DNA of 64,000 nucleotides from Parcubacteria group bacterium Gr01-1014_31 (GCA_007376135.1 VMFR01000005.1:4141-68140), one strand, 5' to 3'; counted from the first letter of the stretch, positions 12,351 through 25,965 are shown. A program made the numbers and translations. The notes: generated from the sequence alone by a model not told the origin.

Positions 12351-12858
12351 ATTTGGAAACCTGGTAGTACAGCGGGGTGCCGTTCGGTCCGTTGCTGGAC
12401 GCCTGCAGCACGCCCGTGCCGGCATTGGGCGTGGGCGCGGTCAGCCCCGGCAGCGTGACCGTCTCTCTGGTGTTCTCAAAATTCGCGTACAGGACGCAGT
12501 GGCCGTCAGCGGTTGCCGTATAACGGTAGTTGGTCGCCGCATCCGTGCCGGTCTTGGGGTCTTTGGGCAGGTTGGTCAGCGCCGATGCGAATTGCGGGTA
12601 CTTGGTCCGCAACTCGGCGGCAACCTCCGCCAGGTCGTAATCGCCCGCTCCGGCATCGGGCAGATAGCACTCGCTGCTCATCAGCATCCGGCCCATCTGG
12701 CTCATGGTGTGCAGACGCTTGGTGTCCCGCGCCTTGCCCACGACGCCGCTGAGCGAAACGATGACCAGTGTCGCCAGTATCCCGACAATAGCTACGACGA
12801 CTAATAATTCAAGAAGGCTGAACCCGCTGCGAAAAGATCCTGTCCGCATACCCATCAA
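12349..12858 (-). CDS. Type IV pilin / pseudopilin with class III prepilin signal
   Basis: N-terminal RSGFSLLELLVVVAIVGILATLVI processing and methylation motif (G|FSLLE). Confidence 0.75.
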   Translation of the reverse strand: MMGMRTGSFRSGFSLLELLVVVAIVGILATLVIVSLSGVVGKARDTKRLHTMSQMGRMLMSSECYLPDAGAGDYDLAEVAAELRTKYPQFASALTNLPKDPKTGTDAATNYRYTATADGHCVLYANFENTRETVTLPGLTAPTPNAGTGVLQASSNGPNGTPLYYQVSK

Positions 12859-13170
12859 ACTATTCTACTATTCACCCCGTTAGAGATTCGCAAGTGAACG
12901 CTTGAGGCGATTCTTCAGATAACGTTTCCCCATGCCGGATTTGAGATACGTCTCGCGTGCCCGCGCATCATCTTCGTTCAGACACGCTTCGTAATACAGC
13001 AGCCGAAACTGGCCTCGATGTTTAGTTGATTGGACCGTTCGTTCATTATGGATCCTCAAGCGTTCACGCAGATCGCTCGTATAACCGGTGTACCAACGTT
13101 TGTCCTTCAAACTTTGTAGTACGTAAGTGTAGAACATGAATCTCTAACGGGGTGAGCGCGAATAGTACCA
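12859..13170. mobile_element. Small TIR-bounded element carrying a GIY-YIG endonuclease gene
   Basis: Left end ACTATTCTACTATTCACCCCGTTAGAGA (12859-12886). Right end TCTCTAACGGGGTGAGCGCGAATAGTACCA (13141-13170). This gives a 15-bp perfect inverted repeat plus an ACTATTC outer match, and the IR overlaps the gene's stop codon. Related copies lie at 13483-13516, 14877-14952 and 15589-15665. Confidence 0.6.
12880..13137 (-). CDS. GIY-YIG nuclease family protein, 85 aa
   Basis: YTYVLQSLKDKRWYTGYTSDLRERLRIHN is the GIY-YIG motif. Confidence 0.7.
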   Translation of the reverse strand: MFYTYVLQSLKDKRWYTGYTSDLRERLRIHNERTVQSTKHRGQFRLLYYEACLNEDDARARETYLKSGMGKRYLKNRLKRSLANL

Positions 13171-13194
13171 TTGAACGAAATCTGGTAAATACGG

Positions 13195-13455
13195 CTAGAG
13201 AAGGGAGAGCAACTGCTTGACGATAACATGCTGCTGCCGAGCCAGAGCGTAGCAAACCAGCAGACTCTGCTTCTCGTACTCAATAATGTCGGCGGCCGAA
13301 AGGACCCGCAAATGCTTGGAAGTTGCCTTGAACGAAAGGCGAATTGCTTCGGCAATATCGCCCACCGGAGCCCCGGGGTGGCGCTTTAAATACTGCAAAA
13401 TTGCCAGCCGGCGGCGGTTGGCAGTCGCTTTCATCAGTTTCTCCAGGTTCTTCAT
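13195..13455 (-). CDS. ArsR/SmtB family transcriptional regulator
   Basis: ANRRRLAILQYL...VGDIAEAIRLSFKATSKHLRVL winged HTH. Confidence 0.7.
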   Translation of the reverse strand: MKNLEKLMKATANRRRLAILQYLKRHPGAPVGDIAEAIRLSFKATSKHLRVLSAADIIEYEKQSLLVCYALARQQHVIVKQLLSLL

Positions 13456-13482
13456 GCTCCCAAGCTTATCACAAGTCCTGCA

Positions 13483-13516
13483 CCTATGGAACTATTCGCG
13501 CGAATAGTTCCATAGG
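13483..13516. repeat. Perfect 34-bp palindrome directly upstream of the arsR start; resembles two element termini joined head-to-head
   Basis: CCTATGGAACTATTCGCGCGAATAGTTCCATAGG. Each half matches the right terminus of the GIY-YIG element (GCGCGAATAGT[A/T]CCAT). Confidence 0.6.
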
Positions 13517-13527
13517 ATGAACGGGGT

Positions 13528-14862
13528 TTACAGCAGAGCGGACGGATGACGGCACTGCGCAAGGAACTCCCGCTGCACCTTTTTCCGTTCCAGCAGACCC
13601 ACCTCCCGGAGGAAGGCGGCATCCTGCGCCGACTGCTCGCGCAATTTTTTGTCCAGCACGATAACCTGCTCATTCACCTGCAGCGCCAGGTCGTTGAGCC
13701 CGACCAACTTGATGCCGGCCAGCGTTCGCACGCGCGAGAGCGCCACGTACCCCATCCCGTATTCGAAGGTCTTTCCCAGGTCTATTTCGGCGCAATCCAG
13801 GCTCATACCCTGGCTCTTGTGCACGGTAATGGCCCACGCCAGCCGAAGTGGTATTTGGATGATGGACGCCAGGACCTTGCCGTCGTCCTCAATTGCCCAC
13901 GTTTCCGTCTGGGCTTTTATCTCCTCCCCGCTCAGCGTGGTAACCATAGGAAAACCGTCGTCCTCGTCAAACCCCGTCACGGTGCCGATGGTGCCGTTCA
14001 CGTAGCCCCGGTTGAAATTGTTCCGGATGAACATCACCACCGCCCCGACCTTCAGCGGCAGCTCCTGGTGGGCCAAGCAACCCCGCTGCAGCTCTTCTAC
14101 AAGGTGCGGGATGCCAATCGCTCGCATCGTGAACACTTTTTCCTCGCCGGGCAGTTTGTCGAGTTGCGTGAGATTGTACGCGTCCACGTCCGAATTGTGC
14201 GTGTACAGCAGCGTCGGCCGCACGATGCCGGCAACGGGCTGGTGCAGGCGTTCGCGCAGAATGTCGCGCGTCTCATCGGACACCCGGTTTTCTCGGATAT
14301 CGTTGAGTACGCGCAAAAACCGCTCATCGGCCTGCCGGTACTGCTCTTCCAGATAGCACACGGCAACGTCGGCGTTCTGCCAAGCTGCCGACTCGACGGC
14401 AAACCGGGGATCCTGGCCGTCGCGGGGCACGGGCGGCAGCTGGAAAAAATCTCCGCAGAACACTATCTGCAAACCGCCGAACGGCCGCAGGTCCTGCCGT
14501 ATAGATTTGCAGATGAGGTCCACCAGGTCCAACCGCTTGGCGTTCAGCATGGAAATTTCGTCGATGACCAAAACGCTGGCATAGTGCACGCGCGGCCACA
14601 GCTGCTCTTTTTCCAGCACCCTTTTCAGCTGCGCGTCGTTCAGCGTTTCGTGGATGCCCATACCGATCCATGAGTGGATGGTTCGGCCGTTCAAGTGCGT
14701 CGCGGCAATGCCGGTCGGCGCGGTGACCCCGACGTTGACCTTGTGTTTCAGAAGATACTCGATGTACCGGTTCAGCAAAAAAGTCTTGCCGCTCCCCGCC
14801 GGGCCGGTGAGAAAGACATTCCTGCCCGTCTTGAGCATTTCGTACGCCTCAAACCGCCGCAT
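13528..14862 (-). CDS. PIF1/RecD-like ATP-dependent DNA helicase
   Basis: Walker A GPAGSGKT, DEISML, and the FCGDFFQLPPV motif of the Pif1 family. Confidence 0.75.
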   Translation of the reverse strand: MRRFEAYEMLKTGRNVFLTGPAGSGKTFLLNRYIEYLLKHKVNVGVTAPTGIAATHLNGRTIHSWIGMGIHETLNDAQLKRVLEKEQLWPRVHYASVLVIDEISMLNAKRLDLVDLICKSIRQDLRPFGGLQIVFCGDFFQLPPVPRDGQDPRFAVESAAWQNADVAVCYLEEQYRQADERFLRVLNDIRENRVSDETRDILRERLHQPVAGIVRPTLLYTHNSDVDAYNLTQLDKLPGEEKVFTMRAIGIPHLVEELQRGCLAHQELPLKVGAVVMFIRNNFNRGYVNGTIGTVTGFDEDDGFPMVTTLSGEEIKAQTETWAIEDDGKVLASIIQIPLRLAWAITVHKSQGMSLDCAEIDLGKTFEYGMGYVALSRVRTLAGIKLVGLNDLALQVNEQVIVLDKKLREQSAQDAAFLREVGLLERKKVQREFLAQCRHPSALL

Positions 14863-14876
14863 AACATCAAAATACG

Positions 14877-14952
14877 ACTATTCTACTAATTTACCCCGCT
14901 AAAAGCGGGGTTCGCTCTCACCCCGCCAACGGCGGGGTAAATAGTACCATGG
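14877..14952. mobile_element. Gene-less (MITE-like) copy of the GIY-YIG element family
   Basis: ACTATTCTACTAATTTACCCCGCTAAAAGCGGGGTTCGCTCTCACCCCGCCAACGGCGGGGTAAATAGTACCATGG. Same termini as the 12859-13170 element, with two internal CCCCGC/GCGGGG hairpins. Confidence 0.5.
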
Positions 14953-14959
14953 TGGGTTT

Positions 14960-15160
14960 TTAGGGTTTGGGGTGAGTGTGCTGCACGCGGCCGACCACAC
15001 CGCTCTGCAAGCGGACCTTGATGCCGTGCGGATGGGTCGCGGAACTGGTCAAAATCTCCTGCACGATGCCGCGGGTCAGTTTCCCCGTCCGCTGGTCTTC
15101 TTTTTGGATAATGTCCACCTCCAAGCCTTCGACAATGTCTTCCCTATTTGGCACGGTCAT
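14960..15160 (-). CDS. YwbE (DUF2196) family small protein
   Basis: GLEVDIIQKEDQRTGKLTRGIVQEILTSSATHPHGIKVRL closely matches YwbE. Confidence 0.65.
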   Translation of the reverse strand: MTVPNREDIVEGLEVDIIQKEDQRTGKLTRGIVQEILTSSATHPHGIKVRLQSGVVGRVQHTHPKP

Positions 15161-15408
15161 ATTTTTCTAAAGAATCTAGAACGCTCAACAATATAGGCGG
15201 CAAGTTCTGGCTTGGTAAGACTTTCACCTAATTTTCTCTTGATCCTCAACCCAATCTGACGTATACGCTCCCTTGTTACACCCATTTCCTCACCGACTTC
15301 CTGGAGCGTCTTCCCTTCAAGTCGCAGGCTTAGGATTTTCTTTTCGCGAGGAGTGAGAAAATCTTCCTGCATTATCTTTTGCAAAACCGTGCTGTACTGC
15401 TGGGGCAT
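15157..15408 (-). CDS. Sigma-70 region-4-like HTH protein (small LuxR/sigma-factor C-terminal domain protein)
   Basis: [43 protein letters not shown]. Confidence 0.55.
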   Translation of the reverse strand: MPQQYSTVLQKIMQEDFLTPREKKILSLRLEGKTLQEVGEEMGVTRERIRQIGLRIKRKLGESLTKPELAAYIVERSRFFRKI

Positions 15409-15459
15409 AACTGTACTTATTTCTCCGTCATTGATGTGAGAAATACTGAATATAATTTA

Positions 15460-15531
15460 CGCCCTCGGCAGGACTTGAACCTGCAAATCCTCGTTAGAAC
15501 CGAGGCAGTTTATCCGTTAGCTTACGAGGGC
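15460..15531 (-). tRNA. tRNA-Arg (anticodon TCT)
   Basis: Hand-folded from sequence. Acceptor GCCCTCG/CGAGGGC. Anticodon stem CCTCG/CGAGG with loop GTTCTAA. T-arm GCAGG-TTCAAGT-CCTGC. Discriminator G. No CCA encoded. Confidence 0.75.
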
Positions 15532-15588
15532 ATGATTCCGACCCAGCACTGCCCCCTTCTCTTCTGCGGTGTAAACATAATCCCTGGA

Positions 15589-15665
15589 AACTATTCCCCT
15601 ATTTACCCCGCTGATAAGCGGGGTTCGCGCTTGACCCGCCGTTGGTAGTGGCGAATTAGAGAATG
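15589..15665. repeat. Degenerate copy of the TIR element family
   Basis: ACTATTCCCCTATTTACCCCGCTGATAAGCGGGGTTCGCGCTTGACCCGCCGTTGGTAGTGGCGAATTAGAG aligns with the 14877-14952 copy. Confidence 0.45.
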
Positions 15666-15673
15666 GGTTGAGT

Positions 15674-16474
15674 TTAGTAGAAGGTCATGTCGGGGTCGAA
15701 CTGACGGAGTTTCTTTGGCATGACGTCGTCGAGGTGATCCAGATCTTCGGGTACCAGCTCGATGAGCGGCAGTTTATATTTTGCGTACAGCGCTTGTTTG
15801 ATCGCCTTGCGCTTCAAGTAATCGGGCTTATCGTTCATGCCCCAAAATTCCACATACACACCCATCCGTTTCGTCGGCAACGGGATCAAAAAATCACACA
15901 CCAACGGTTCGGCCACCGGCACCCGTCGCTCATACCCATGCGGAATCAAATTGTGGTACAGCCAGTTGTCGATCGTTACCTCGGCGAAACTCCGAACATA
16001 GTGGCCGTCATCGGTGAATTTTTCGGGGTGGAACTCGTCACTGAAACGGAAATCGTGCTCCCAGGAGGTTTCGACATGATACTTCCCAAACGTCCGTTCG
16101 ACGGCCGCAACTTCCGCTGGCGTAAGCACCACCGGCGGGTAGTAACCTGTTTTCACTTTCTGAAAATTCAGCGCGCCTTTCAGCTGGAGACGGGTTAGTT
16201 GATAACGCCGGATTTTCCAAATCACACGCACCTGCTGCGAAAATTTTCCACCCCACGCCTCTGGAACTATATTGCCCTGCACCGTACCCAGCGCACGGAA
16301 CGTGCCGAACAGCCGCTCGGACATCAAATTGTACAGGTAGACAAAATCACCCTCGAGCAACTCCGCTAGCTGTTTCGCATGGATTGGCTTCTCTCCAAAC
16401 AACATCCGCTGGAAACACTCGTCCTGTGTGACATTAGTACAACGGAAAATATAGCCTTTGGGTGTGGACGGCAT
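15674..16474 (-). CDS. DCD (PUA-like/EVE-related) domain protein with an uncharacterized C-terminal domain
   Basis: PKGYIFRCTNVTQDECFQRMLFGEKP matches the DCD-domain N-terminal signature. Begins 14 bp after the MmeI-like stop. AT-rich. Internal Met taken as the start. Confidence 0.5.
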   Translation of the reverse strand: MPSTPKGYIFRCTNVTQDECFQRMLFGEKPIHAKQLAELLEGDFVYLYNLMSERLFGTFRALGTVQGNIVPEAWGGKFSQQVRVIWKIRRYQLTRLQLKGALNFQKVKTGYYPPVVLTPAEVAAVERTFGKYHVETSWEHDFRFSDEFHPEKFTDDGHYVRSFAEVTIDNWLYHNLIPHGYERRVPVAEPLVCDFLIPLPTKRMGVYVEFWGMNDKPDYLKRKAIKQALYAKYKLPLIELVPEDLDHLDDVMPKKLRQFDPDMTFY

Positions 16475-16487
16475 AAAAACAGCAAAA

Positions 16488-19298
16488 CTATGAAATCGTA
16501 CGGCGCGGCGAGGGTCTTTTCGTTGGTTTACTCTTACTTCCTGGATGTTCTTCTTTCCCGAGATACGCCTTGTACAGCCCAAACAAAAACTCTAACCGTT
16601 CGGGTTCGGTTTTGAAATCCCGCTTGCCGTAACATGCGTCAACCGCTCTGTCGAGGTTGTGGTGAGCATCGAGCAGCTCTTTTGGCATGGTGTTAGGATC
16701 ATAGAGATCGGCCAAAGTTGAACTGGTAAACTTTGCACGAGCATCAAGCACTGCCTGGGCTGCATTCTCAACAGCTTCTTTCTTATCCATCAATGGATTC
16801 TCCGGCCAAGGAAAGCTGTTGTAAACGATATCCTTCGAGTAACGGTAATCAGATTTTAGACGCCCTGCCACAGTACGCATCCAGGCCATGTGCATCCTAC
16901 TTTCCAATACTCCGAAATGGTAAAGACCCGCGCCAGAAACAATAAAAACTGCATCGCCTGCCAACGTATCTTTCCCCATAAAACCTATGGGGATATATTG
17001 GCGACGCTCGGAAGATACTTTTGGAATGACAAGGTAATCCCCATCTGGAATATTCTCAACATGGAAATGCGTTGGTTTTTCGGCCAGCCTTCGCGTTGGT
17101 TCACTTTTACTAAGGGCACGATATTGCCTTACGGCATTAATCCGTCGCATTACCTCAGGCAAGGAACGGATCTCATCTGGCCGTGCGTCACCTACCCATA
17201 GGCACCAGCGCTCAATCCCGTTAAGGAATTCTTCCGAGCCAATCCAACGTTTAAAGAATTTCTCCGCGCGTGGCTCTAAATGTAAAAACTTTAATTTTTC
17301 GGCCGCCGAGAAAAGATACATCCCTCCATCTATGGGCTTATTCCCAATTCCGATTTCTGGAATAATGCCCAAAGGTGCACGACGCCTCTCAAGAAAAACA
17401 TCAGGTGCGTCGACGAGATATGGATTAATATGAGAGGCGATAATCTCGTGTGGCTCGCCACGAATATCTTCGTATTCATATATCTTGAGAGTTTCGCCGG
17501 GCTGGCACCCAAAACCTATCACAACACAATACACAGCGGCTTTCCCCGGCGCCTCATTCGTCCACTTGAAAGTGCGATGTGCAAAATTAATATGGACCCT
17601 GTATCTCCCCATCATTTCATGCCATAGAATTCCTACCTGTTCTCCTTGAGTGATTGAATTAGTAGACACAAACGCACAGCTAATCGCGGTACCTTGAATG
17701 TATTGAGCTGCTTTGAGGTACCAACCTGAAACATAATCTAATACGCCACCTCCACTCTTATCACCAAACAACGAAACGATTTCCGCTCGTTGTTCATCAG
17801 CCATAACCTTCGAGCCAATAAACGGTGGGTTACCGACTATGTAGGTAAGTTTTTCCTCGGATACAAGTAATCGCCAGTCAATCTTCAGTGCGTTCCCCTG
17901 CATAATATGTGGCTGCTCAATGAGTGGAAGTTTACGGAGAGGCTCACCAAAGTAATCACCTAGTTGAACGTTTGTCATATGATCAGTCAACCAAAGTGAT
18001 AGCTGCGCAATCTGCGACGGGAATGATTCAAGTTCAATCCCAAACATCCTCTCGACGGAAAGTTTCGAAAGTTTCGATAAATCAATTTCCATCAGTAATA
18101 CACCCTGCCCGGCATCTACCCTAGCTGTGCGATCTTTATGCAATCGTTTAATTATCTCTAACTCAATTCTGCGTAGTTCACGATACGCGATGACAAGAAA
18201 GTTTCCACAGCCGCAAGCAGGATCAAGTAACGTAATTTTGGCTAACTTTTCCCATAAGGTGTTAAGCTTAGTAGTATTATTACCTACTGTCCTCAGTTCC
18301 CGCTCTAAATCATCTAGGAACAAACCACTTAGTACCTTAAGGATATTCTTCTCTGAGGTGTAGTGTGCACCTAAGTCATGGCGAGCTCGATCATCCATGA
18401 CCGATTGGAACATGGACCCGAATATCGCAGGCGAAATAACTGACCAATCAAATTGTACCGCCGCGATGATTGCGTCTCGGATGCCACGAGTGCCGAAGAG
18501 TGCGGGCAGCGGGGCGGCAAAAAGTCCACCATTAACGTATTCTAATGATGCAAGATCCTCATCAAAGTTTGTCTGCCGCTGGGCCGGCGGTGTATTTAGT
18601 ATTTGAAAAATTAGGCTTAGATGTGCACCAATATCTGAGCCGTCTTCTTTCGTTCTTTCTTCAAGGTAGTTACGGAAAAAATCACTATTAAAAATTCCGG
18701 TGTCATCGGCAAAGAAACAAAACACCAAGCGCGTCAGGAGCTTATCAATGGCCTCCCGGGGGTAATTCGTGATACGGATGGCTTCGTATAACTTTCCGAT
18801 GGCTTGAACCGCCTTAACACTAATGGGGTTTTCTTCACGATATGTCCGAACCCGAAATCCAGGAATGAAACTAAACAGCTTGATCTTTTTGGGGAATTCT
18901 TTAAGCTCGAATTCCTCCTGAAAAACCCCGCCGTCGGCCTCCAGATCATAAAACCGAATTCGAGCATAGTCCGTTACAACGATGTAACGAGGGCGATCAA
19001 CCTCTGGGAGCGCATCAAAATACGATCCTGCCTGTTGGTACGCGCTGTCTAAATTTTTACCGCCGCTTTTGTGTTCAACTATCAACGTGCCAGGCCAGAA
19101 TAAATCGATGAATCCACGATGGCGCTCACCGATGAGATTTACTTTTTCCTGATATCGGGCAACTGTGCGTCGTCGAATTCCGTATACCTCAAAAAACTCA
19201 TTCCAAAAAGACTGGTACTCACCGACTTCACTAGTCTGCCCCGCCCATTCACGGGCGAACGCGACTGCCTGGGCTCGTATTTCATTCCAATTCAGCAT
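16488..19298 (-). CDS. MmeI-family Type IIL restriction-modification enzyme (fused endonuclease, gamma-class N6-adenine methyltransferase and target-recognition domain)
   Basis: Collinear similarity to MmeI along its length: WNEIR, FFEVYGI, GFIDLFWPG, PRYIVVTDY, DPACGCGNFLVIAYRELR, GNPPFIG, CAFVSTNSITQGEQV, INFAHRTFKWTNEAPGKAAVYCVVIGFG, RWCLW, RQYIPIGF, RYRYSKDIVYNSFPW, DLYDPNTMPKELLDAHHNLDRAVD. 936 aa; MmeI is about 919 aa. Confidence 0.85.
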   Translation of the reverse strand: MLNWNEIRAQAVAFAREWAGQTSEVGEYQSFWNEFFEVYGIRRRTVARYQEKVNLIGERHRGFIDLFWPGTLIVEHKSGGKNLDSAYQQAGSYFDALPEVDRPRYIVVTDYARIRFYDLEADGGVFQEEFELKEFPKKIKLFSFIPGFRVRTYREENPISVKAVQAIGKLYEAIRITNYPREAIDKLLTRLVFCFFADDTGIFNSDFFRNYLEERTKEDGSDIGAHLSLIFQILNTPPAQRQTNFDEDLASLEYVNGGLFAAPLPALFGTRGIRDAIIAAVQFDWSVISPAIFGSMFQSVMDDRARHDLGAHYTSEKNILKVLSGLFLDDLERELRTVGNNTTKLNTLWEKLAKITLLDPACGCGNFLVIAYRELRRIELEIIKRLHKDRTARVDAGQGVLLMEIDLSKLSKLSVERMFGIELESFPSQIAQLSLWLTDHMTNVQLGDYFGEPLRKLPLIEQPHIMQGNALKIDWRLLVSEEKLTYIVGNPPFIGSKVMADEQRAEIVSLFGDKSGGGVLDYVSGWYLKAAQYIQGTAISCAFVSTNSITQGEQVGILWHEMMGRYRVHINFAHRTFKWTNEAPGKAAVYCVVIGFGCQPGETLKIYEYEDIRGEPHEIIASHINPYLVDAPDVFLERRRAPLGIIPEIGIGNKPIDGGMYLFSAAEKLKFLHLEPRAEKFFKRWIGSEEFLNGIERWCLWVGDARPDEIRSLPEVMRRINAVRQYRALSKSEPTRRLAEKPTHFHVENIPDGDYLVIPKVSSERRQYIPIGFMGKDTLAGDAVFIVSGAGLYHFGVLESRMHMAWMRTVAGRLKSDYRYSKDIVYNSFPWPENPLMDKKEAVENAAQAVLDARAKFTSSTLADLYDPNTMPKELLDAHHNLDRAVDACYGKRDFKTEPERLEFLFGLYKAYLGKEEHPGSKSKPTKRPSPRRTIS

Positions 19299-19365
19299 GG
19301 TTCGGAGTCGAGTAAATCATTCAAGCTTTTTTAATGACTAACAATTCTCCAGCATTCCAGTGTGT

Positions 19366-19400
19366 CAATTTTCCCACCATTGGGCCAAAAAGTCAAAAAC
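19366..19400 (-). promoter_or_regulatory. Promoter-like motif copy A upstream of the MmeI-like gene
   Basis: On the minus strand: TTGACT-TTTTGGCCCAATGGTGG-GAAAAT. Near-identical copies lie at 22496-22530 and 25783-25815. Confidence 0.45.
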
Positions 19401-19429
19401 AAACGGGGCTATTAGCCTTTCTTCAAAGA

Positions 19430-19460
19430 ACAAAAAAACGCCAGCATGAGGGCTGGCGAT
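19430..19460 (-). terminator. Rho-independent terminator on the minus strand, following the PRTase-like gene
   Basis: Minus strand: gccagccctcatgctggc followed by ttttttt. Confidence 0.55.
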
Positions 19461-19718
19461 TCCTCTTAAGAGCTCATACTAGAAGATTTCAAATGCAACG
19501 CGTCAGCTATTTGAATTTACAATTCACATAGATACCTTTTAATAGAGCCCGCACTTTTATCTTAGCACTACTCAGCTTAGTAGGCCAGAATAGTATCAAG
19601 GTATTCGATAACGGCTGTAGCTTAGGCCAGTCCACTATTGTGGCGCTTTTTAGAAAACTTCCGCCGTTCTTTAGTGAACAGAAATTTTATGGTGCGCATT
19701 TCTTAATCGCACACTCCT

Positions 19719-20579
19719 TTACCCGCGGACTAGATCAGTAATGCGTGGAAAAATGCCAAATTTACTATCCTGTCCCACGTTGCCCCTGAAAATGCTAGGC
19801 ACGCCATTAGGTGTATTCCTATAAAAAACTACCATAGAGGCAAGGCCTCTATAACCCAATGGAGCCCCCCGATCTCCCTCCCTGCAATAACCAACCAGCC
19901 TCTCTCTTTCTACATCATCAAGAATTATACTATCAGGGTGCAATGGTCGATCATTCTTATCGTGGATATAATCACAGACGATTTCGACGCCTACTTTAGT
20001 AATTGCAGCGAAGGCTTCGCGACAAATGCAAGGCAAGAGAAAAAATTCAGAAAACTGACCTATCAAAGGAACTTCTTTTGCGACATAATTTCTTGAATTT
20101 AAAAATTGATCACCAGTCCCCGAAAAATCATCAACATATATAATAGCGCCACTTCCTAGGCTGATTGTCGTCTTGATGAGCTCAAGTAAGTTTTGACAAT
20201 CGATAATATGCACGCGCTTTCGTTCTAGATTAGCTTTATCGCGGAGTAAGTTAAGCATCAAGTGGCTACTACTTGCTGGCTTGTCCACGGTCACATATAT
20301 AACTTTTTCTAATGCTACCCCTCGACTTTGTAATTTAGCTAGTAACTTTCCATTGTGTTTGACGAGGACATCTTCCGTCTTTTGTTCCGAATAATACCGG
20401 ATATGACTCAACAAGGACAAAATTAGATGGTGATCAGTTTTAGGAAATTGATCGAGCCAACTAAGAACTAATTGCGGGTGGACTTTTTGAGGGTGGTAAT
20501 CCTTAACTCGCCTACAAAAGTGCAGAATCCTCAAGTAATCTAAGGGATGCAACATCGCCCATGATAAATTATTCATCAT
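19719..20579 (-). CDS. Phosphoribosyltransferase (PRTase)-like domain protein
   Basis: AIIYVDDFSGTGDQF resembles the PRPP-binding loop (hhhhDDhxxTG). AT-rich. Start uncertain; overlaps the upstream gene's end. Confidence 0.4.
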   Translation of the reverse strand: MMNNLSWAMLHPLDYLRILHFCRRVKDYHPQKVHPQLVLSWLDQFPKTDHHLILSLLSHIRYYSEQKTEDVLVKHNGKLLAKLQSRGVALEKVIYVTVDKPASSSHLMLNLLRDKANLERKRVHIIDCQNLLELIKTTISLGSGAIIYVDDFSGTGDQFLNSRNYVAKEVPLIGQFSEFFLLPCICREAFAAITKVGVEIVCDYIHDKNDRPLHPDSIILDDVERERLVGYCREGDRGAPLGYRGLASMVVFYRNTPNGVPSIFRGNVGQDSKFGIFPRITDLVRG

Positions 20580-21576
20580 CTGTCGGGGTGCCATCCTCCA
20601 TTTTCGCAAGCAGATTTGTAATATAGACCTGCACACCCCTCACGGCCCTCACAAAATCTTTATTAACCTCGCTTGTTAGCTGAGATTCCAATCCCCTTAA
20701 CTTTTCTACAAGATCATTACAAGCGGTAATTGCTGTTGTAATATTTCGAGGTGGCAAAAAAATATCAAAAGTATCACGAGTTTCTAGCTCTATGTGGTTC
20801 ACGTATTCTTTTAACTTTGATTTAAATTCTTTCTCCCGGTTCTGTTCTTGGGCTTTTGCCGATGCTTCAATTATCCTTCGGAAATGAATTACGCTTACGA
20901 TCTTCCCTGATTTGTATTTATCAACAAGCCTTTGAATCAAAACTTCTCTGCCAAGTTCCCTAAATAATCCTGGTAGTTTATCCTCATAAATCTTAATGAC
21001 CGGGTAGGCCTCAATCCAAAAATTCGAAGCCACTCGTCTATCGGGCTCTGACTCTAGAGACAAAGCCTGAAACTTTTCCGGAAAGCTAAGTAATATTTTG
21101 CAACGCTCCACCTGCATCTCACTTAAACCCGTAAGATCAGATATCTTTTTATTATCGTCTTCGTGCAGCTCTTCAATGATGGTTTTCAGACTAATCGCAG
21201 TTGGCATTAGCTCCCATTGTTGTCTAAAGTTATGAATCGAAAACATGTAAAGCAGGCCGGCAATTTTTGTCGGTGGCTCAACAATATTAGCGGGTATAGT
21301 AATCTCAAAACCATCATCAGCCAATTCCGCGCAACACCGAAACCGTCTCTCCCCATCTAAAATTGCATATTTTTCTTGTCCTTTAATTTTGTAAGCGGTG
21401 ATCGGTACAAGTACCCCATGTTGTTGGATACTTTCTTTTAATTCTCGTAAGGGCACGGGGTCGAATAACTTTCTGGGGTTATTTCGATTTGGTTTTATCT
21501 CGGTGACATGAAGATGCTTGAGTAGTCCGGTAGGAACAACTTCCGTAATAACTTTATGTTGTTTATTACTAGACAT
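20569..21576 (-). CDS. ParB/sulfiredoxin-like nuclease domain protein
   Basis: HVTEIKPNRNNPRKLFDPVPLRELKESIQQHGVLVPITAY...LDGERRFRCC is the ParB N-terminal domain with its GERR motif. Confidence 0.65.
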   Translation of the reverse strand: MSSNKQHKVITEVVPTGLLKHLHVTEIKPNRNNPRKLFDPVPLRELKESIQQHGVLVPITAYKIKGQEKYAILDGERRFRCCAELADDGFEITIPANIVEPPTKIAGLLYMFSIHNFRQQWELMPTAISLKTIIEELHEDDNKKISDLTGLSEMQVERCKILLSFPEKFQALSLESEPDRRVASNFWIEAYPVIKIYEDKLPGLFRELGREVLIQRLVDKYKSGKIVSVIHFRRIIEASAKAQEQNREKEFKSKLKEYVNHIELETRDTFDIFLPPRNITTAITACNDLVEKLRGLESQLTSEVNKDFVRAVRGVQVYITNLLAKMEDGTPTDDE

Positions 21577-21580
21577 TATT

Positions 21581-22387
21581 TTAAACCAATATGTTTGAAA
21601 TCAAAAATTCTCGAGCAGCTTTCCGATTAGAGGAGAACCCAGCTATGCTTCTCCTCACAGAAATTATTCTTTTATAAAATCCTTCCGAAAGCATTTTCGC
21701 CTCATTTGATTCTAAATAGCTAACCAAAAAAGGAATCCGCATGCGACTAAGCCTGCGCATCCATTTTCGTAATCTAATAAGCTTTTTGAAATCAAATTTA
21801 GAGCTATCATAGTCTGTAAAAATGTTTTTGTTATGGACACTGAAAGGCGGATCCATATAGACAAAATCTCCTTTCCGAACGTAACGAAGTGTTTCATCAA
21901 AATCAGCAGCTAAGAGATGTGCCCTCTTCAAAAGCTTAGAAGAACGAGAAAAGACAAGCTCGCTCGGGATGCTGCCAGTTTTGCCGTAAGGCACATTAAA
22001 TTGGCCTGATTGATTTGTTCTATATAAACCATTGAAACAAAAACGATTGAGATACACAAAACGAGCCGCCCTTACCAATGGGTTGTTGATTTTTTTTGAA
22101 TCAAGAGACCTTAGCGAGTAATATGTCTGCTTAGATTGATCTAGCTCTTCTAATATAGCCAAGACTCCTTTCCAATCTTTTTTTATCTGCCTATAGGTAG
22201 CTATCAACTCAAGATTAATATCAGCGAGTAGGGCCTCTTTTGGGGCTACATTAAAAAAGAGGCACGCAGATCCGGCGAACGGTTCCACATACCGCTTACT
22301 TTGACTTGCGCGCCAATAACTGGAAAGTAACGGTACTAACTGCCTCTTGCTGCCAGCCCAACGTAAAATTGTATAATTAGCTGCCAT
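21581..22387 (-). CDS. Dam-family DNA N6-adenine methyltransferase
   Basis: LRWAGSKRQLVPLL...YVEPFAGSACLFF (AdoMet-binding motif I) and DPPF (motif IV). Confidence 0.8.
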   Translation of the reverse strand: MAANYTILRWAGSKRQLVPLLSSYWRASQSKRYVEPFAGSACLFFNVAPKEALLADINLELIATYRQIKKDWKGVLAILEELDQSKQTYYSLRSLDSKKINNPLVRAARFVYLNRFCFNGLYRTNQSGQFNVPYGKTGSIPSELVFSRSSKLLKRAHLLAADFDETLRYVRKGDFVYMDPPFSVHNKNIFTDYDSSKFDFKKLIRLRKWMRRLSRMRIPFLVSYLESNEAKMLSEGFYKRIISVRRSIAGFSSNRKAAREFLISNILV

Positions 22388-22495
22388 TCACAATTATTAT
22401 TATACGCCCAGTTCTTATTAAAAGAAAAAATTCCCTAATATGACTGACCGGAAGTGAAGTAAACCATATCGAAAAAAATAGTCTATTACCATTCC

Positions 22496-22530
22496 AATGG
22501 TCCCACCGTTAGGCCAAAAAGTCAAAACCT
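22496..22530 (-). promoter_or_regulatory. Promoter-like motif copy B upstream of dam
   Basis: Minus strand: TTGACT-TTTTGGCCTAACGGTGG-GACCAT. Confidence 0.4.
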
Positions 22531-22658
22531 CGATGCGCCCATTGGTAGGAAAGTAGGTAAAAAATCGAGGCCCCGCCTCGGGCGGGCAGGGAGCAAAGCG
22601 GTGGGTCCCGCCAACGGCGAGGTAGGCCATTTACCCGGTAATGACGGTTTGAGGTTAC

Positions 22659-22772
22659 TGGATTCCCGCCTTCGCGGGAATGACGGTTTTTTTGATTTCT
22701 GGACCTCCGCTACGGCGCGGGGATGGCGGTTTCTGGTTTTTTTCTGGACCCCCGCCTACGCGGGGTGACAAT
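22659..22772. repeat. About 2.7 tandem copies of a 41-45 bp hairpin unit
   Basis: TGGA(T/C)(T/C)CCCGC(C)T(T/A)CG(G)CG(C)GGG(A/G)ATG(A/G)CGGTTT..TTTTT. A related gggaatgacgatttgtttt lies near 25870. Confidence 0.5.
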
Positions 22773-25108: not shown

Positions 25109-25438
25109 TTACAAATGCGCCCGCGCGGCGTAATTGAAGGGGTAAAAATAATTACGCCACAGCTGGTCGGTAGATTTCCATTGATTGTCACCGACAAAAT
25201 AATCGCTCAACACTTCGCGGACCCGCGCGATCTCCTTGCAGCGCCGCCTGTTTTTTCCGTCCGCCAGGGTCAGGTCGATGAGTTCCAGCGCGCGCTCGAA
25301 CGCCAGGCGGCTGTACTCCGGATTTTTGCTCCGCCACGAGATGGTCCGCTCCACTTCGCTGCCGATATTGGCCAGCTGCTCGATCAGCGAAAGCTCGCGC
25401 CATTTCCCGTTCGCTAATTCCCGATGTTGGTAGGTCAT
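25109..25438 (-). CDS. Hypothetical protein, 109 aa
   Basis: ORF translationally coupled (ATGA) to the upstream DUF5674 gene. Confidence 0.4.
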   Translation of the reverse strand: MTYQHRELANGKWRELSLIEQLANIGSEVERTISWRSKNPEYSRLAFERALELIDLTLADGKNRRRCKEIARVREVLSDYFVGDNQWKSTDQLWRNYFYPFNYAARAHL

Positions 25439-25776
25439 TTCGTTACCAGCTGAGTTACTATCGCAACGATCTTTTTCTGCAGCGCCGGGTCTTGCACGCT
25501 GCGGCTGCGGTTGTCTTGCGACGGCCGCAGGTTGATCATCGAGTCGAATTCGATAAAATTTTCCTCTTGTTCATCCGGATACAGGTTGATACCCCACAGG
25601 TCGGCTTGCAGAGAACCCTGCTCAAGCAGGTACGCCTCTTCGTCGGCGTGCAGCTCGGCGTCAATCGCCATGATCTTTTTCTCCACGTCAACTACCGCTT
25701 TGACCATATTGCCAAAACCATGCGCAGCGATCTGCCGCAACTCCGCAAGAGTTACCGGGGACTGGATGATACGCAT
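25435..25776 (-). CDS. Conserved small protein resembling DUF5674
   Basis: GFGNMVKAVVDVEKKIMAIDAELHADEEAYLLEQGSLQADLWGINLYPD...FDSMINLRPSQDNRSR. The promoter-like motif ends 7-11 bp from the ATG, so the transcript is probably leaderless. Confidence 0.45.
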   Translation of the reverse strand: MRIIQSPVTLAELRQIAAHGFGNMVKAVVDVEKKIMAIDAELHADEEAYLLEQGSLQADLWGINLYPDEQEENFIEFDSMINLRPSQDNRSRSVQDPALQKKIVAIVTQLVTK

Positions 25777-25782
25777 AAAAAA

Positions 25783-25815
25783 ATTTTCCCACCGTTAGGC
25801 CAAAAAGTCAAAATC
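25783..25815 (-). promoter_or_regulatory. Promoter-like motif copy C immediately upstream of the DUF5674 ATG
   Basis: Minus strand: TTGACT-TTTTGGCCTAACGGTGG-GAAAAT, with the -10 ending about 7 nt before the ATG. Confidence 0.45.
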
Positions 25816-25965
25816 ATGAAGTAGGGAACCCGTAACAAGTGGGAGAGGAATTTTTTCTAGATTCCCTCTGCGTCTCGGGAATGACGATTTGTTTTCCCCC
25901 TCACCCAACCCTCTCCCACATCGGGGAGAGGAAAATTATTTTGGGTATAATACAGGTGCTCCTGG

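Follow-up and report, generated by a model that had tools for sequence, protein, structure and literature searches.

A candidate methylation-linked Dam–ParB–PRTase cassette in a probably composite defence island of a Parcubacteria genome

A low-GC block spanning about 15.6–22.5 kb of a 64,000-nucleotide stretch of DNA from Parcubacteria group bacterium Gr01-1014_31 (GCA_007376135.1 VMFR01000005.1:4141-68140), hereafter the window, contains five genes on the minus strand, encoding a Dam-family DNA methyltransferase, a ParB/Noc/KorB-like protein, a phosphoribosyltransferase (PRTase)-like protein of the PRTase-CE family, an MmeI-like restriction-modification (R-M) enzyme and a protein with a DCD domain. 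The first three, which we call the triad, form an autonomous, horizontally mobile cassette, widely dispersed but rare, that is undescribed within the databases and literature searched; judged from its sequences, it appears to be a methylation-linked module joining a known effector family to an unprecedented ParB-type partner. With high confidence we regard the block as a whole as a composite defence island of three independently acquired modules, in which the triad stands on its own.

Across the block GC content falls to 39–48%, against about 60–62% in its surroundings: in 2-kb bins it is 0.478 at 16–18 kb, 0.448 at 18–20 kb and 0.394 at 20–22 kb (background bins 0.59–0.64), and in a 500-nt profile it lies below 0.50 from about 16.5 kb and is back to 0.57 at 22.5 kb. 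GC content at third codon positions (GC3) is stratified, with 0.37–0.38 in the triad (0.37 in the methyltransferase gene), 0.44 in the MmeI-like gene and 0.65 in the DCD gene, compared with 0.70–0.83 in the flanking host genes. A first-pass annotation of the window had noticed the fall in GC, which stands, and had put the background at 65%, which is too high; its reading of the block as a horizontally acquired restriction/modification island is supported. Profiles from Pfam, PADLOC and NCBIfam also bear out the five minus-strand genes and all five domain assignments that it proposed, these genes and one antisense frame being the only open reading frames (ORFs) of at least 150 aa between 15.6 and 22.5 kb. 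The block lies, as had been noted, on the 5' side of a tRNA-Arg(TCT) gene (15459–15532, minus strand; Rfam match), and an Rfam scan of 12–27 kb returned nothing besides this tRNA.

The three genes of the triad

The triad begins with a gene (21581–22387, minus strand) for a 268-aa N6-adenine DNA methyltransferase of the Dam family (D12 class) with a DPPF motif, which matches Pfam PF02086 MethyltransfD12 (1.3e-45), PADLOC MTase_II (1e-68) and, at 205.7 bits against a cut-off of 114.85, the NCBIfam dam model TIGR00571. GATC avoidance was considered as a clue to the specificity of this enzyme and dropped, as the observed/expected ratios (window, 0.89; triad, 0.97) were uninformative. Four nucleotides after its stop codon starts the gene (20569–21576, minus strand; ParB_N, 4e-15) for the 335-aa ParB/Noc/KorB-like protein, hereafter ParB, which in turn overlaps the PRTase gene. 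ParB combines an N-terminal CTPase fold, with Box I (NPR), Box II (GERRFR) and Box III (HNFR), a central helix-turn-helix (HTH; LTGLSEMQVERCK) and a helical, highly conserved C-terminal region of about 150 aa that matches nothing known. Throughout the family the NPR, GERR and N..R residues are invariant, and ParB identity is at least 50% across phyla, above the conservation of the PRTase.

Profile alignment of ParB to Noc and to B. subtilis Spo0J brings all three boxes (I, NPR; II, GERRxR; III, hNf-RE) and the central HTH into register, and the top structural matches of its predicted model are Noc, ParB with CDP or CTPγS, and KorB, over 190–280 aligned columns. By sequence alignment and predicted fold it is thus a canonical ParB/Noc-type CTP-switch DNA-binding protein. 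A nuclease, as the first-pass annotation had it, was rejected: the fold is that of a CTPase clamp, aligned with the Noc, ParB and KorB clamps HTH included, and 'ParB/Srx nuclease' is a historical label. The protein shares Boxes I–III and the central HTH with those clamps, in sequence and in fold, and differs from them in its lack of a ParA, its unique C-terminal half, a histidine in Box III and its methyltransferase and PRTase flanks. A role as a partition protein was rejected for want of a ParA; in annotated loci no ParA or CbiA-type gene lies next to ParB, whose neighbours are always Dam and the PRTase. Also rejected was an assignment to the DUF262/GmrS-type modules. GmrS/DUF262 in GmrSD, BrxU and SspE, together with DndB and DpdB, presumably represent ParB-fold nucleoside triphosphate (NTP) switches coupled to modification-dependent effectors; we take those modules to be of DUF262 or DndB type, fused or paired with nucleases or modification enzymes, whereas the triad protein is of the canonical ParB/Noc type and is accompanied by a PRTase.

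The third gene is annotated at 19719–20594 (minus strand, 291 aa) within an open frame of 19719–20636, and its true start is likely to be an ATGATG near 20576 that shares bases with the ParB stop. Its product matches PF24390 (2e-33) and PADLOC PRTase_III-A (1.2e-24), and carries a phosphoribosyl pyrophosphate (PRPP) loop, GAIIYVDDFSGTGDQF, with GAIIYVDDFxGTGxQF invariant in the family (D155, D156, G161 and others). Further downstream, G247-x14-P262-N263-x2-P266 matches the retron-effector motif Gx14PNNxP, reported to be characteristic of retron-associated PRTases (PMC12746101). The AlphaFold model has a pLDDT of 92.5 and type I PRTases as its nearest solved folds; a profile search against Protein Data Bank sequences gave spurious weak matches only, the PRTase core being visible by fold search. 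Several relatives act in defence: on activation the PRTase effector of Retron-Eco11 depletes PRPP and brings about abortive infection (PMC12746101), ShosT is described as disrupting purine metabolism (PMC11961720), and OpnC of Ophion and DS-32A are validated defence PRTases. The PRTases of a 2017 paper on polyvalent proteins belong to a different clade.

The resemblance to the type III-A retron Retron-Eco11 extends to the PF24390/PRTase_III-A effector family, the PRPP loop and the G-x14-PN..P motif, but the triad PRTase lacks the winged HTH and C-terminal tail of the Eco11 protein and has a ParB clamp and a methyltransferase as partners. No reverse transcriptase, non-coding RNA or multicopy single-stranded DNA (msDNA) accompanies the triad, either in the island (ORFs, Rfam) or in the other loci, and in annotated loci no RVT gene is adjacent to it. 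The lone RVT_1 gene, in locus L004, lies about 6 kb off and is paired with bAvd; at 12805–16513 of that locus, about 4 kb from the triad, a KAP NTPase–FGE–sulfatase fusion is followed by this RVT_1 reverse transcriptase and bAvd, which look like a diversity-generating retroelement unrelated to the triad. With ShosTA, PsyrTA, DS-32 (NADAR and PRTase) and Ophion (radical SAM (rSAM), PHP and PRTase) the triad shares a PRTase-like toxic or effector part in a small mobile defence operon; the partners there are a DprA-like antitoxin, NADAR or rSAM/PHP, and none of these systems has a ParB or a DNA methyltransferase.

The first-pass annotation had not recognized the triad as a described combination, and our searches found no description either. 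PADLOC 2.0 contains no model that matches ParB and matches the PRTase through retron PRTase_III-A models only; NCBIfam release 20 yields generic ParB domains and a sub-threshold match to DS32_1 (36.5 bits, cut-off 250) only. No account of the triad emerged from full-text searches that combined PRTase with ParB and methyltransferase or that used 'PRTase-CE', and phosphoribosyltransferases do not come up in a 2025 survey devoted to orphan ParB-CTPase proteins.

Synteny and dispersal of the triad

Entering metagenomes and GTDB genomes through the PRTase and ParB proteins, we fetched 39 triad loci, about 30 of them distinct, and scanned them by phmmer with the five window proteins. Wherever a locus has room, Dam, ParB and PRTase are contiguous on one strand, and the order is Dam–ParB–PRTase throughout, the exception being one clade (L001–L003) with ParB–PRTase–Dam, in which the methyltransferase belongs to a different D12 subfamily with DPCY instead of DPPF. 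The ParB–PRTase pair is never separated, the methyltransferase lying on either side. Directly after the triad, the loci of the exceptional clade (ENA metagenome contigs) carry an Mrr-type Type IV enzyme and a C5 methyltransferase.

Carriers include Patescibacteria (Parcubacteria, Saccharibacteria), Nitrospirota, Acidobacteriota, Cloacimonadota, Latescibacterota, Rhodothermia, Gemmatimonadota, Spirochaetia, Chloroflexota, Betaproteobacteria and Planctomycetota, so that the triad occurs, patchily, in at least ten phyla. The family is nonetheless small, with 72 representatives at E<=1e-30 among 1.84 billion 50%-identity clusters. Of 19 genomes, 18 have a triad lower in GC than its flanks, typically by about 10 points, an argument that the cassette has been acquired horizontally more than once.

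In a count of Pfam families over 144 flank ORFs, Phage_integrase (5), ResIII (4), PhyH (4) and DEAD (3) lead, followed by N6_N4_Mtase, rve, AAA_15 and AAA_21 (2 each); PhyH is the sole top family without a mobile or defence meaning. PADLOC matches in the flanks comprise BrxH-, DrmD- and HmaA-type helicases and Type III methyltransferases, and the neighbours in single loci are Mrr, a BglII R-M system with a serine recombinase, an HNH R-M system, or a Type III R-M system, while other copies are bare three-gene insertions between housekeeping genes. As a compact mobile cassette of a methyltransferase and potentially harmful partners, AT-richer than its host and sited among housekeeping or defence genes, the triad resembles Type II R-M systems with a Dam-family methylase (DpnII type) and the methylation-based systems whose machinery is not a nuclease (BREX, DISARM and MADS). 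It differs in that its predicted output is metabolic rather than DNA cleavage. Neither ParB nor the PRTase matches a nuclease family in Pfam, PADLOC or NCBIfam, their folds being ParB-CTPase with HTH and type I PRTase, and PADLOC finds no PglZ, BrxC, DrmA/B or MAD component among the triad proteins.

Four triads (L023, L027, L030 and L031, in Chloroflexia and Acidobacteriota metagenome-assembled genomes (MAGs)) are degraded, with Dam, ParB and PRTase genes frameshifted or fragmentary; the cassette can therefore decay in place, and no consistent order of gene loss is readable in the four. An apparent natural loss of the methyltransferase, in a comparison of L034 with L035, was rejected as a gene-calling artefact, the two DNAs being 100% identical.

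These loci also bear on the suggestion, made in the first-pass annotation, that the triad is left over from phage ParB-methyltransferase genes. Such a remnant, functionless and derived from the anti-restriction or partition genes of a phage or plasmid, might be supposed from the frequency of ParB-methyltransferase fusions in prophages, from the generic methyltransferase and ParB families that the triad matches in PHROGs, and from one triad contig listed in IMG/VR. Among 2.9 million IMG/VR contigs it alone matches the PRTase; this 9.9-kb contig is also present in a Nitrospirota MAG, and the neighbours of its triad have no Pfam match. A tblastn search with the PRTase against 50,697 phage and 72,556 plasmid records gave no match, its PHROGs match covers merely 31 residues at E 1.7e-4, and no locus has a ParA partner; moreover, the three genes are intact and strongly conserved in chromosomes, with the ParB identity across phyla pointing to purifying selection on the whole cassette. 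We consider a remnant very unlikely.

The MmeI-like and DCD genes and the borders of the block

The MmeI-like gene (16488–19298, minus strand) encodes a 936-aa Type IIL (IIG) restriction-modification-specificity enzyme with five MmeI Pfam domains. It matches PADLOC REase_MTase_IIG (PDLC03598) with 1123 bits over residues 2–915, and opens with a PD-ExK nuclease domain (PF20464, 2.3e-40, residues 10–175) whose D-x10-E-x-K motif is visible in GFIDLFWPGTLIVEHKSGG; spacer, methyltransferase, target recognition and C-terminal domains (PF20465; PF20473, 1.4e-87; PF20466, 2.9e-73; PF20467) follow in the same chain, the methyltransferase with DPACGCGNF and NPPF motifs. With all five domains end to end and the nuclease and methyltransferase motifs intact, it shows no notable difference from MmeI; as a member of that family it would be expected to cleave about 20/18 nt away from an asymmetric site and to methylate a single strand. 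Weak PADLOC matches to PglX, DrmMI and mad2 stem from the methyltransferase domain. The protein is 44–66% identical to its nearest metagenomic relatives, and on its sequence it is a complete, standard stand-alone Type IIL enzyme, ordinary in itself and of use chiefly as a candidate for a new MmeI-family specificity.

The DCD gene (15674–16474, minus strand; open frame 15674–16582) encodes 266 aa from an ATG 13 nt past the MmeI stop, with which it is probably co-transcribed. An N-terminal DCD (PUA-like) reader domain (PF10539 Dev_Cell_Death, 8.5e-15) is joined to a PD-(D/E)XK-type nuclease: the C-terminal half matches PADLOC PDC-S69 (1.2e-36) and HEAT_CxxC_PD-DEXK (1.3e-7), with the nuclease motif D...E-F-W-G in ...VCDFLIP...VYVEFWGM.... 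This architecture is very rare, with 16 matches in 5.8 billion proteins, and the protein has no match in PHROGs. Bell, Wolf and Koonin (2020) described prokaryotic DCD-PD-(D/E)XK fusions as predicted readers of modified DNA bases for restriction (PMC7641849), and an architecture-guided screen describes PUA-nuclease fusions as often being modification-dependent endonucleases (PMC6765204); by analogy, the protein is predicted to be a modification-dependent (Type IV) endonuclease. Such an enzyme must tolerate the N6-methyladenine (m6A) laid down by the adjoining Dam and MmeI enzymes, and because two m6A methyltransferases adjoin, its target would most likely be another modification, for example a cytosine modification. 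It resembles the DCD/EVE reader-nucleases in domain order and in having a homolog with a Type III R-M system as neighbour, and differs in that the PDC-S69 match covers the nuclease half only; we regard it as an ordinary, if rare, bacterial member of that class. Three DCD-nuclease homologs in five fetched loci lie beside Type III R-M, alone with a small unknown gene, or near CHAT/caspase genes. In two pairs of loci (L036/L037, L038/L039) a 259-aa or 169-aa gene without a Pfam match lies at a conserved position 3–6 nt downstream of the DCD-nuclease gene, which in the window is taken by the tRNA; a partner that usually accompanies the DCD-nuclease may be absent in this genome.

The first-pass annotation had grouped the MmeI-like enzyme, the DCD protein and the triad as one combination, and the strongest form of that idea is a single integrated R-M system in which all five cooperate. 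The genes are physically adjacent, the MmeI-like and DCD genes being 13 nt apart and probably co-transcribed, and the same promoter-like motif precedes both operons. Yet from no side do the modules recur together: all 39 triad loci are free of MmeI and DCD homologs out to about 10 kb, MmeI being absent even beside the closest triads (ParB identity 77–80%); none of the five DCD loci has a triad or an MmeI neighbour; and of the 80 nearest metagenomic relatives of the MmeI-like protein, 59 of which are followed by 900 bp or more of sequence downstream, not one has a DCD-nuclease or triad neighbour. The five-gene combination is therefore not supported. The three GC3 strata and the terminator between the operons also speak against a single system, and the motif precedes an unrelated host operon at 25.8 kb as well, hence is the host's. 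Cooperation of all five genes seems to us barely credible; adjacency of the three modules is what a defence island would be expected to show, and co-transcription of the DCD and MmeI-like genes is best explained as an accident of insertion.

The motif in question (TTGACT-17-GAAAAT with TG) occurs three times (at 19370, 22499 and 25785), against zero copies expected, 5' of the MmeI-like gene (19367–19401, minus strand, TG-extended), 5' of the Dam operon (22496–22530, minus strand, with a degenerate -10 element; a second candidate promoter of this operon lies at 22421–22393) and 5' of an unrelated pair of small genes. After the PRTase stop, and ahead of the MmeI copy, comes a terminator-like GC hairpin with a T-run (19439–19458, minus strand), and hairpin and motif together split the block into two transcription units. 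As the 30-nt motif is also found 5' of unrelated host genes at 25.1–25.8 kb, it belongs to the genome and is no signature of the island. That third copy (25785–25813) precedes two small unannotated genes of 113 aa and 109 aa (25109–25894), neither with a Pfam or PHROG match. A hairpin unit, '..CCCGnGAnGGnGGGAAT..' beside 'AAACCGTCATT', stands upstream of the 25.8-kb promoter and is found again, as a tandem, ahead of the Dam promoter (22636–22770); its recurrence before promoters suggests a reusable terminator-promoter cassette in this genome.

Bracketing repeats had also been proposed for the block, as copies of a terminal inverted repeat element and of the promoter-like motif; the motif is indeed repeated, whereas the copies of the other element lie elsewhere. 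A double-hairpin, repetitive extragenic palindromic (REP)-like element between the tRNA and the DCD gene (15590–15650) is a copy of one at 14877–14945, and the two bracket the tRNA and a small HTH gene, leaving the island outside; the supposed right-hand copy at about 22600 is a weak 18-nt match. Att-like direct repeats around the island were rejected on the same grounds. The island contains no integrase gene, and megablast against plasmids gave no match.

Several further features lie on the 3' side of the tRNA. Low GC extends across 14950–15458, where an 83-aa protein (15157–15408, GC 0.44, GC3 0.46) consists of a sigma-70 region-4 / LuxR-type HTH alone. Further out, in the interval 12872–13155, an 85-aa GIY-YIG ORF (12880–13137, GC 0.48, Pfam 5e-14) is bounded exactly by perfect 18-bp inverted repeats (TCACCCCGTTAGAGATTC / GAATCTCTAACGGGGTGA) and resembles a very small mobile element; locus L043 likewise has a GIY-YIG gene close to its triad. 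Next to it are an 86-aa ArsR/MarR-type HTH gene (13195–13455) between 16-nt inverted repeats (13156–13171 / 13486–13501), a perfect 34-bp palindrome (13483–13516) and a PIF1-like helicase gene (13528–14862).

A proposed role for the triad

Gene content, strict synteny, the conservation of catalytic and ligand motifs, a foreign composition and independence of the MmeI-like and DCD genes are established for the triad; its role is inferred, and in it ParB would sense and the PRTase would act. We consider it somewhat more probable than not that the triad serves defence or addiction. That the cassette brings along a methyltransferase of its own suggests self-marking, and a site-specific, CTP-gated clamp is a plausible reader of the methyl mark. 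In the scheme that we propose, Dam would methylate a short adenine-containing site on host DNA, and ParB, as a CTP-switch clamp with a site-specific HTH, would load on that site only if it is unmethylated, as it would be on invading DNA or on host DNA after loss of the cassette. Loaded ParB would license the PRTase-CE enzyme, which would consume PRPP or derail nucleotide metabolism, as its relatives in Retron-Eco11 and ShosTA do, so that replication stops and abortive infection or post-segregational arrest ensues. Taken as a whole, from the composite island to the mechanism of the triad, this is the best explanation, at slightly better than even probability, a figure that blends parts of unequal strength. 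Its most specific element, a ParB sensor acting on a PRTase effector, is tentative and less likely than not: ParB, rather than a nuclease or helicase, might sense unmethylated non-self DNA and directly license the PRTase, with either collapse of PRPP and nucleotide pools or phosphoribosylation of invader DNA as the result.

Co-variation between the HTH and the methyltransferase is in keeping with this proposal. Among 113 ParB homologs the recognition helix xxxQ[IV]ERC[KR] is near universal, and its glutamine is replaced only in the L001 clade (SEGSVENCK), which is also alone in having the DPCY methyltransferase and the altered gene order; the pattern fits matched specificity, as a hint that is weak on its own. 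Several points weigh on the other side. This co-variation is a single evolutionary event, and GATC is not depleted in the window, at the ratio given above. Box III of ParB has an invariant histidine in place of the glutamate that Bacillus ParB needs for CTP hydrolysis, and for that reason clamp cycling may differ here. ParB could be merely a KorB-like regulator of its own operon, against which stands the lack of a conserved operator: no common operator or parS-like site was found upstream of Dam in 26 loci, the best 8-mer occurring in 5 of the 26. The triad contains no nuclease, which leaves the analogy with R-M systems one of logic. The carriers are without exception MAGs of uncultivated bacteria, housekeeping genes alone adjoin the triad in about half of the inspected loci, and the association with defence islands is modest, with no background rate to set it against.

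The same machinery could serve the cassette rather than its host. If the triad were primarily a selfish addiction module, with phage defence secondary, loss of the cassette would dilute methylation, ParB would load on the chromosome and the PRTase would arrest growth, a form of post-segregational killing. Type II R-M systems are known to act as addiction modules, and the compact insertions between housekeeping genes without other mobile genes nearby, the consistently AT-rich composition and the patchy spread across phyla would suit such a life. Several copies, however, stand among defence or mobile genes, experiments link the effector family to abortive infection against phages, and the four degraded copies imply that loss is survivable; we consider a primarily selfish role unlikely.

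Two further alternatives, both improbable in our estimation, give the methyl mark or the PRTase another meaning. In the first, the methyltransferase would generate a danger signal, and either ParB, by way of its NTP pocket, or the PRTase would be activated by m6A DNA or by m6A nucleotides set free when a phage breaks down the host chromosome. A precedent is PUA-Cal-HAD, a sensor of m6-dAMP that stems from Dam methylation (bioRxiv 10.64898/2026.01.15.699771); the ParB-CTPase fold is able to accommodate other NTPs (bioRxiv 10.1101/2025.10.10.680097), bases and nucleotides are ligands of PRTases, and a nuclease is missing from the triad; yet the HTH of ParB is full, sequence-specific and nearly invariant, which points to the reading of DNA rather than of a mononucleotide, and an own methyltransferase is the classic signature of self-marking.

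In the second, the triad would modify DNA, ParB recruiting the PRTase-like enzyme to form or exchange N-glycosidic bonds by phosphoribosylation or base exchange, in the manner of DpdB and the transglycosylase DpdA, or of a DarT-like adduct toxin acting on unmethylated DNA. The precedent is DpdB, which we take to be a ParB-like ATPase working with DpdA. ParB is predicted to be DNA-bound, and the pairing in DS-32 of a PRTase with a DarG-related NADAR glycohydrolase hints at removable ribosyl adducts. Against this, the only measured outputs of the effector family are PRPP depletion and disruption of purine metabolism, the cassette has no reversal enzyme, and type I PRTases act on free bases.

Should the methylation-gated scheme hold, the triad would be the first case of a genuine ParB CTP switch serving in immunity, and the switch would thereby gain a role beyond chromosome and plasmid biology. 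It would apply the logic of restriction-modification, telling self from non-self by methylation, with a non-nucleolytic, metabolic output, and would add a third kind of partner for PRTase-CE effectors, after retron reverse transcriptase/msDNA and toxin-antitoxin partners. Confined as it is to uncultivated lineages, including the candidate phyla radiation, the triad would not have been sampled by function screens in E. coli or Pseudomonas; at about 2.7 kb and with its active-site motifs conserved, it lends itself to direct cloning and testing.

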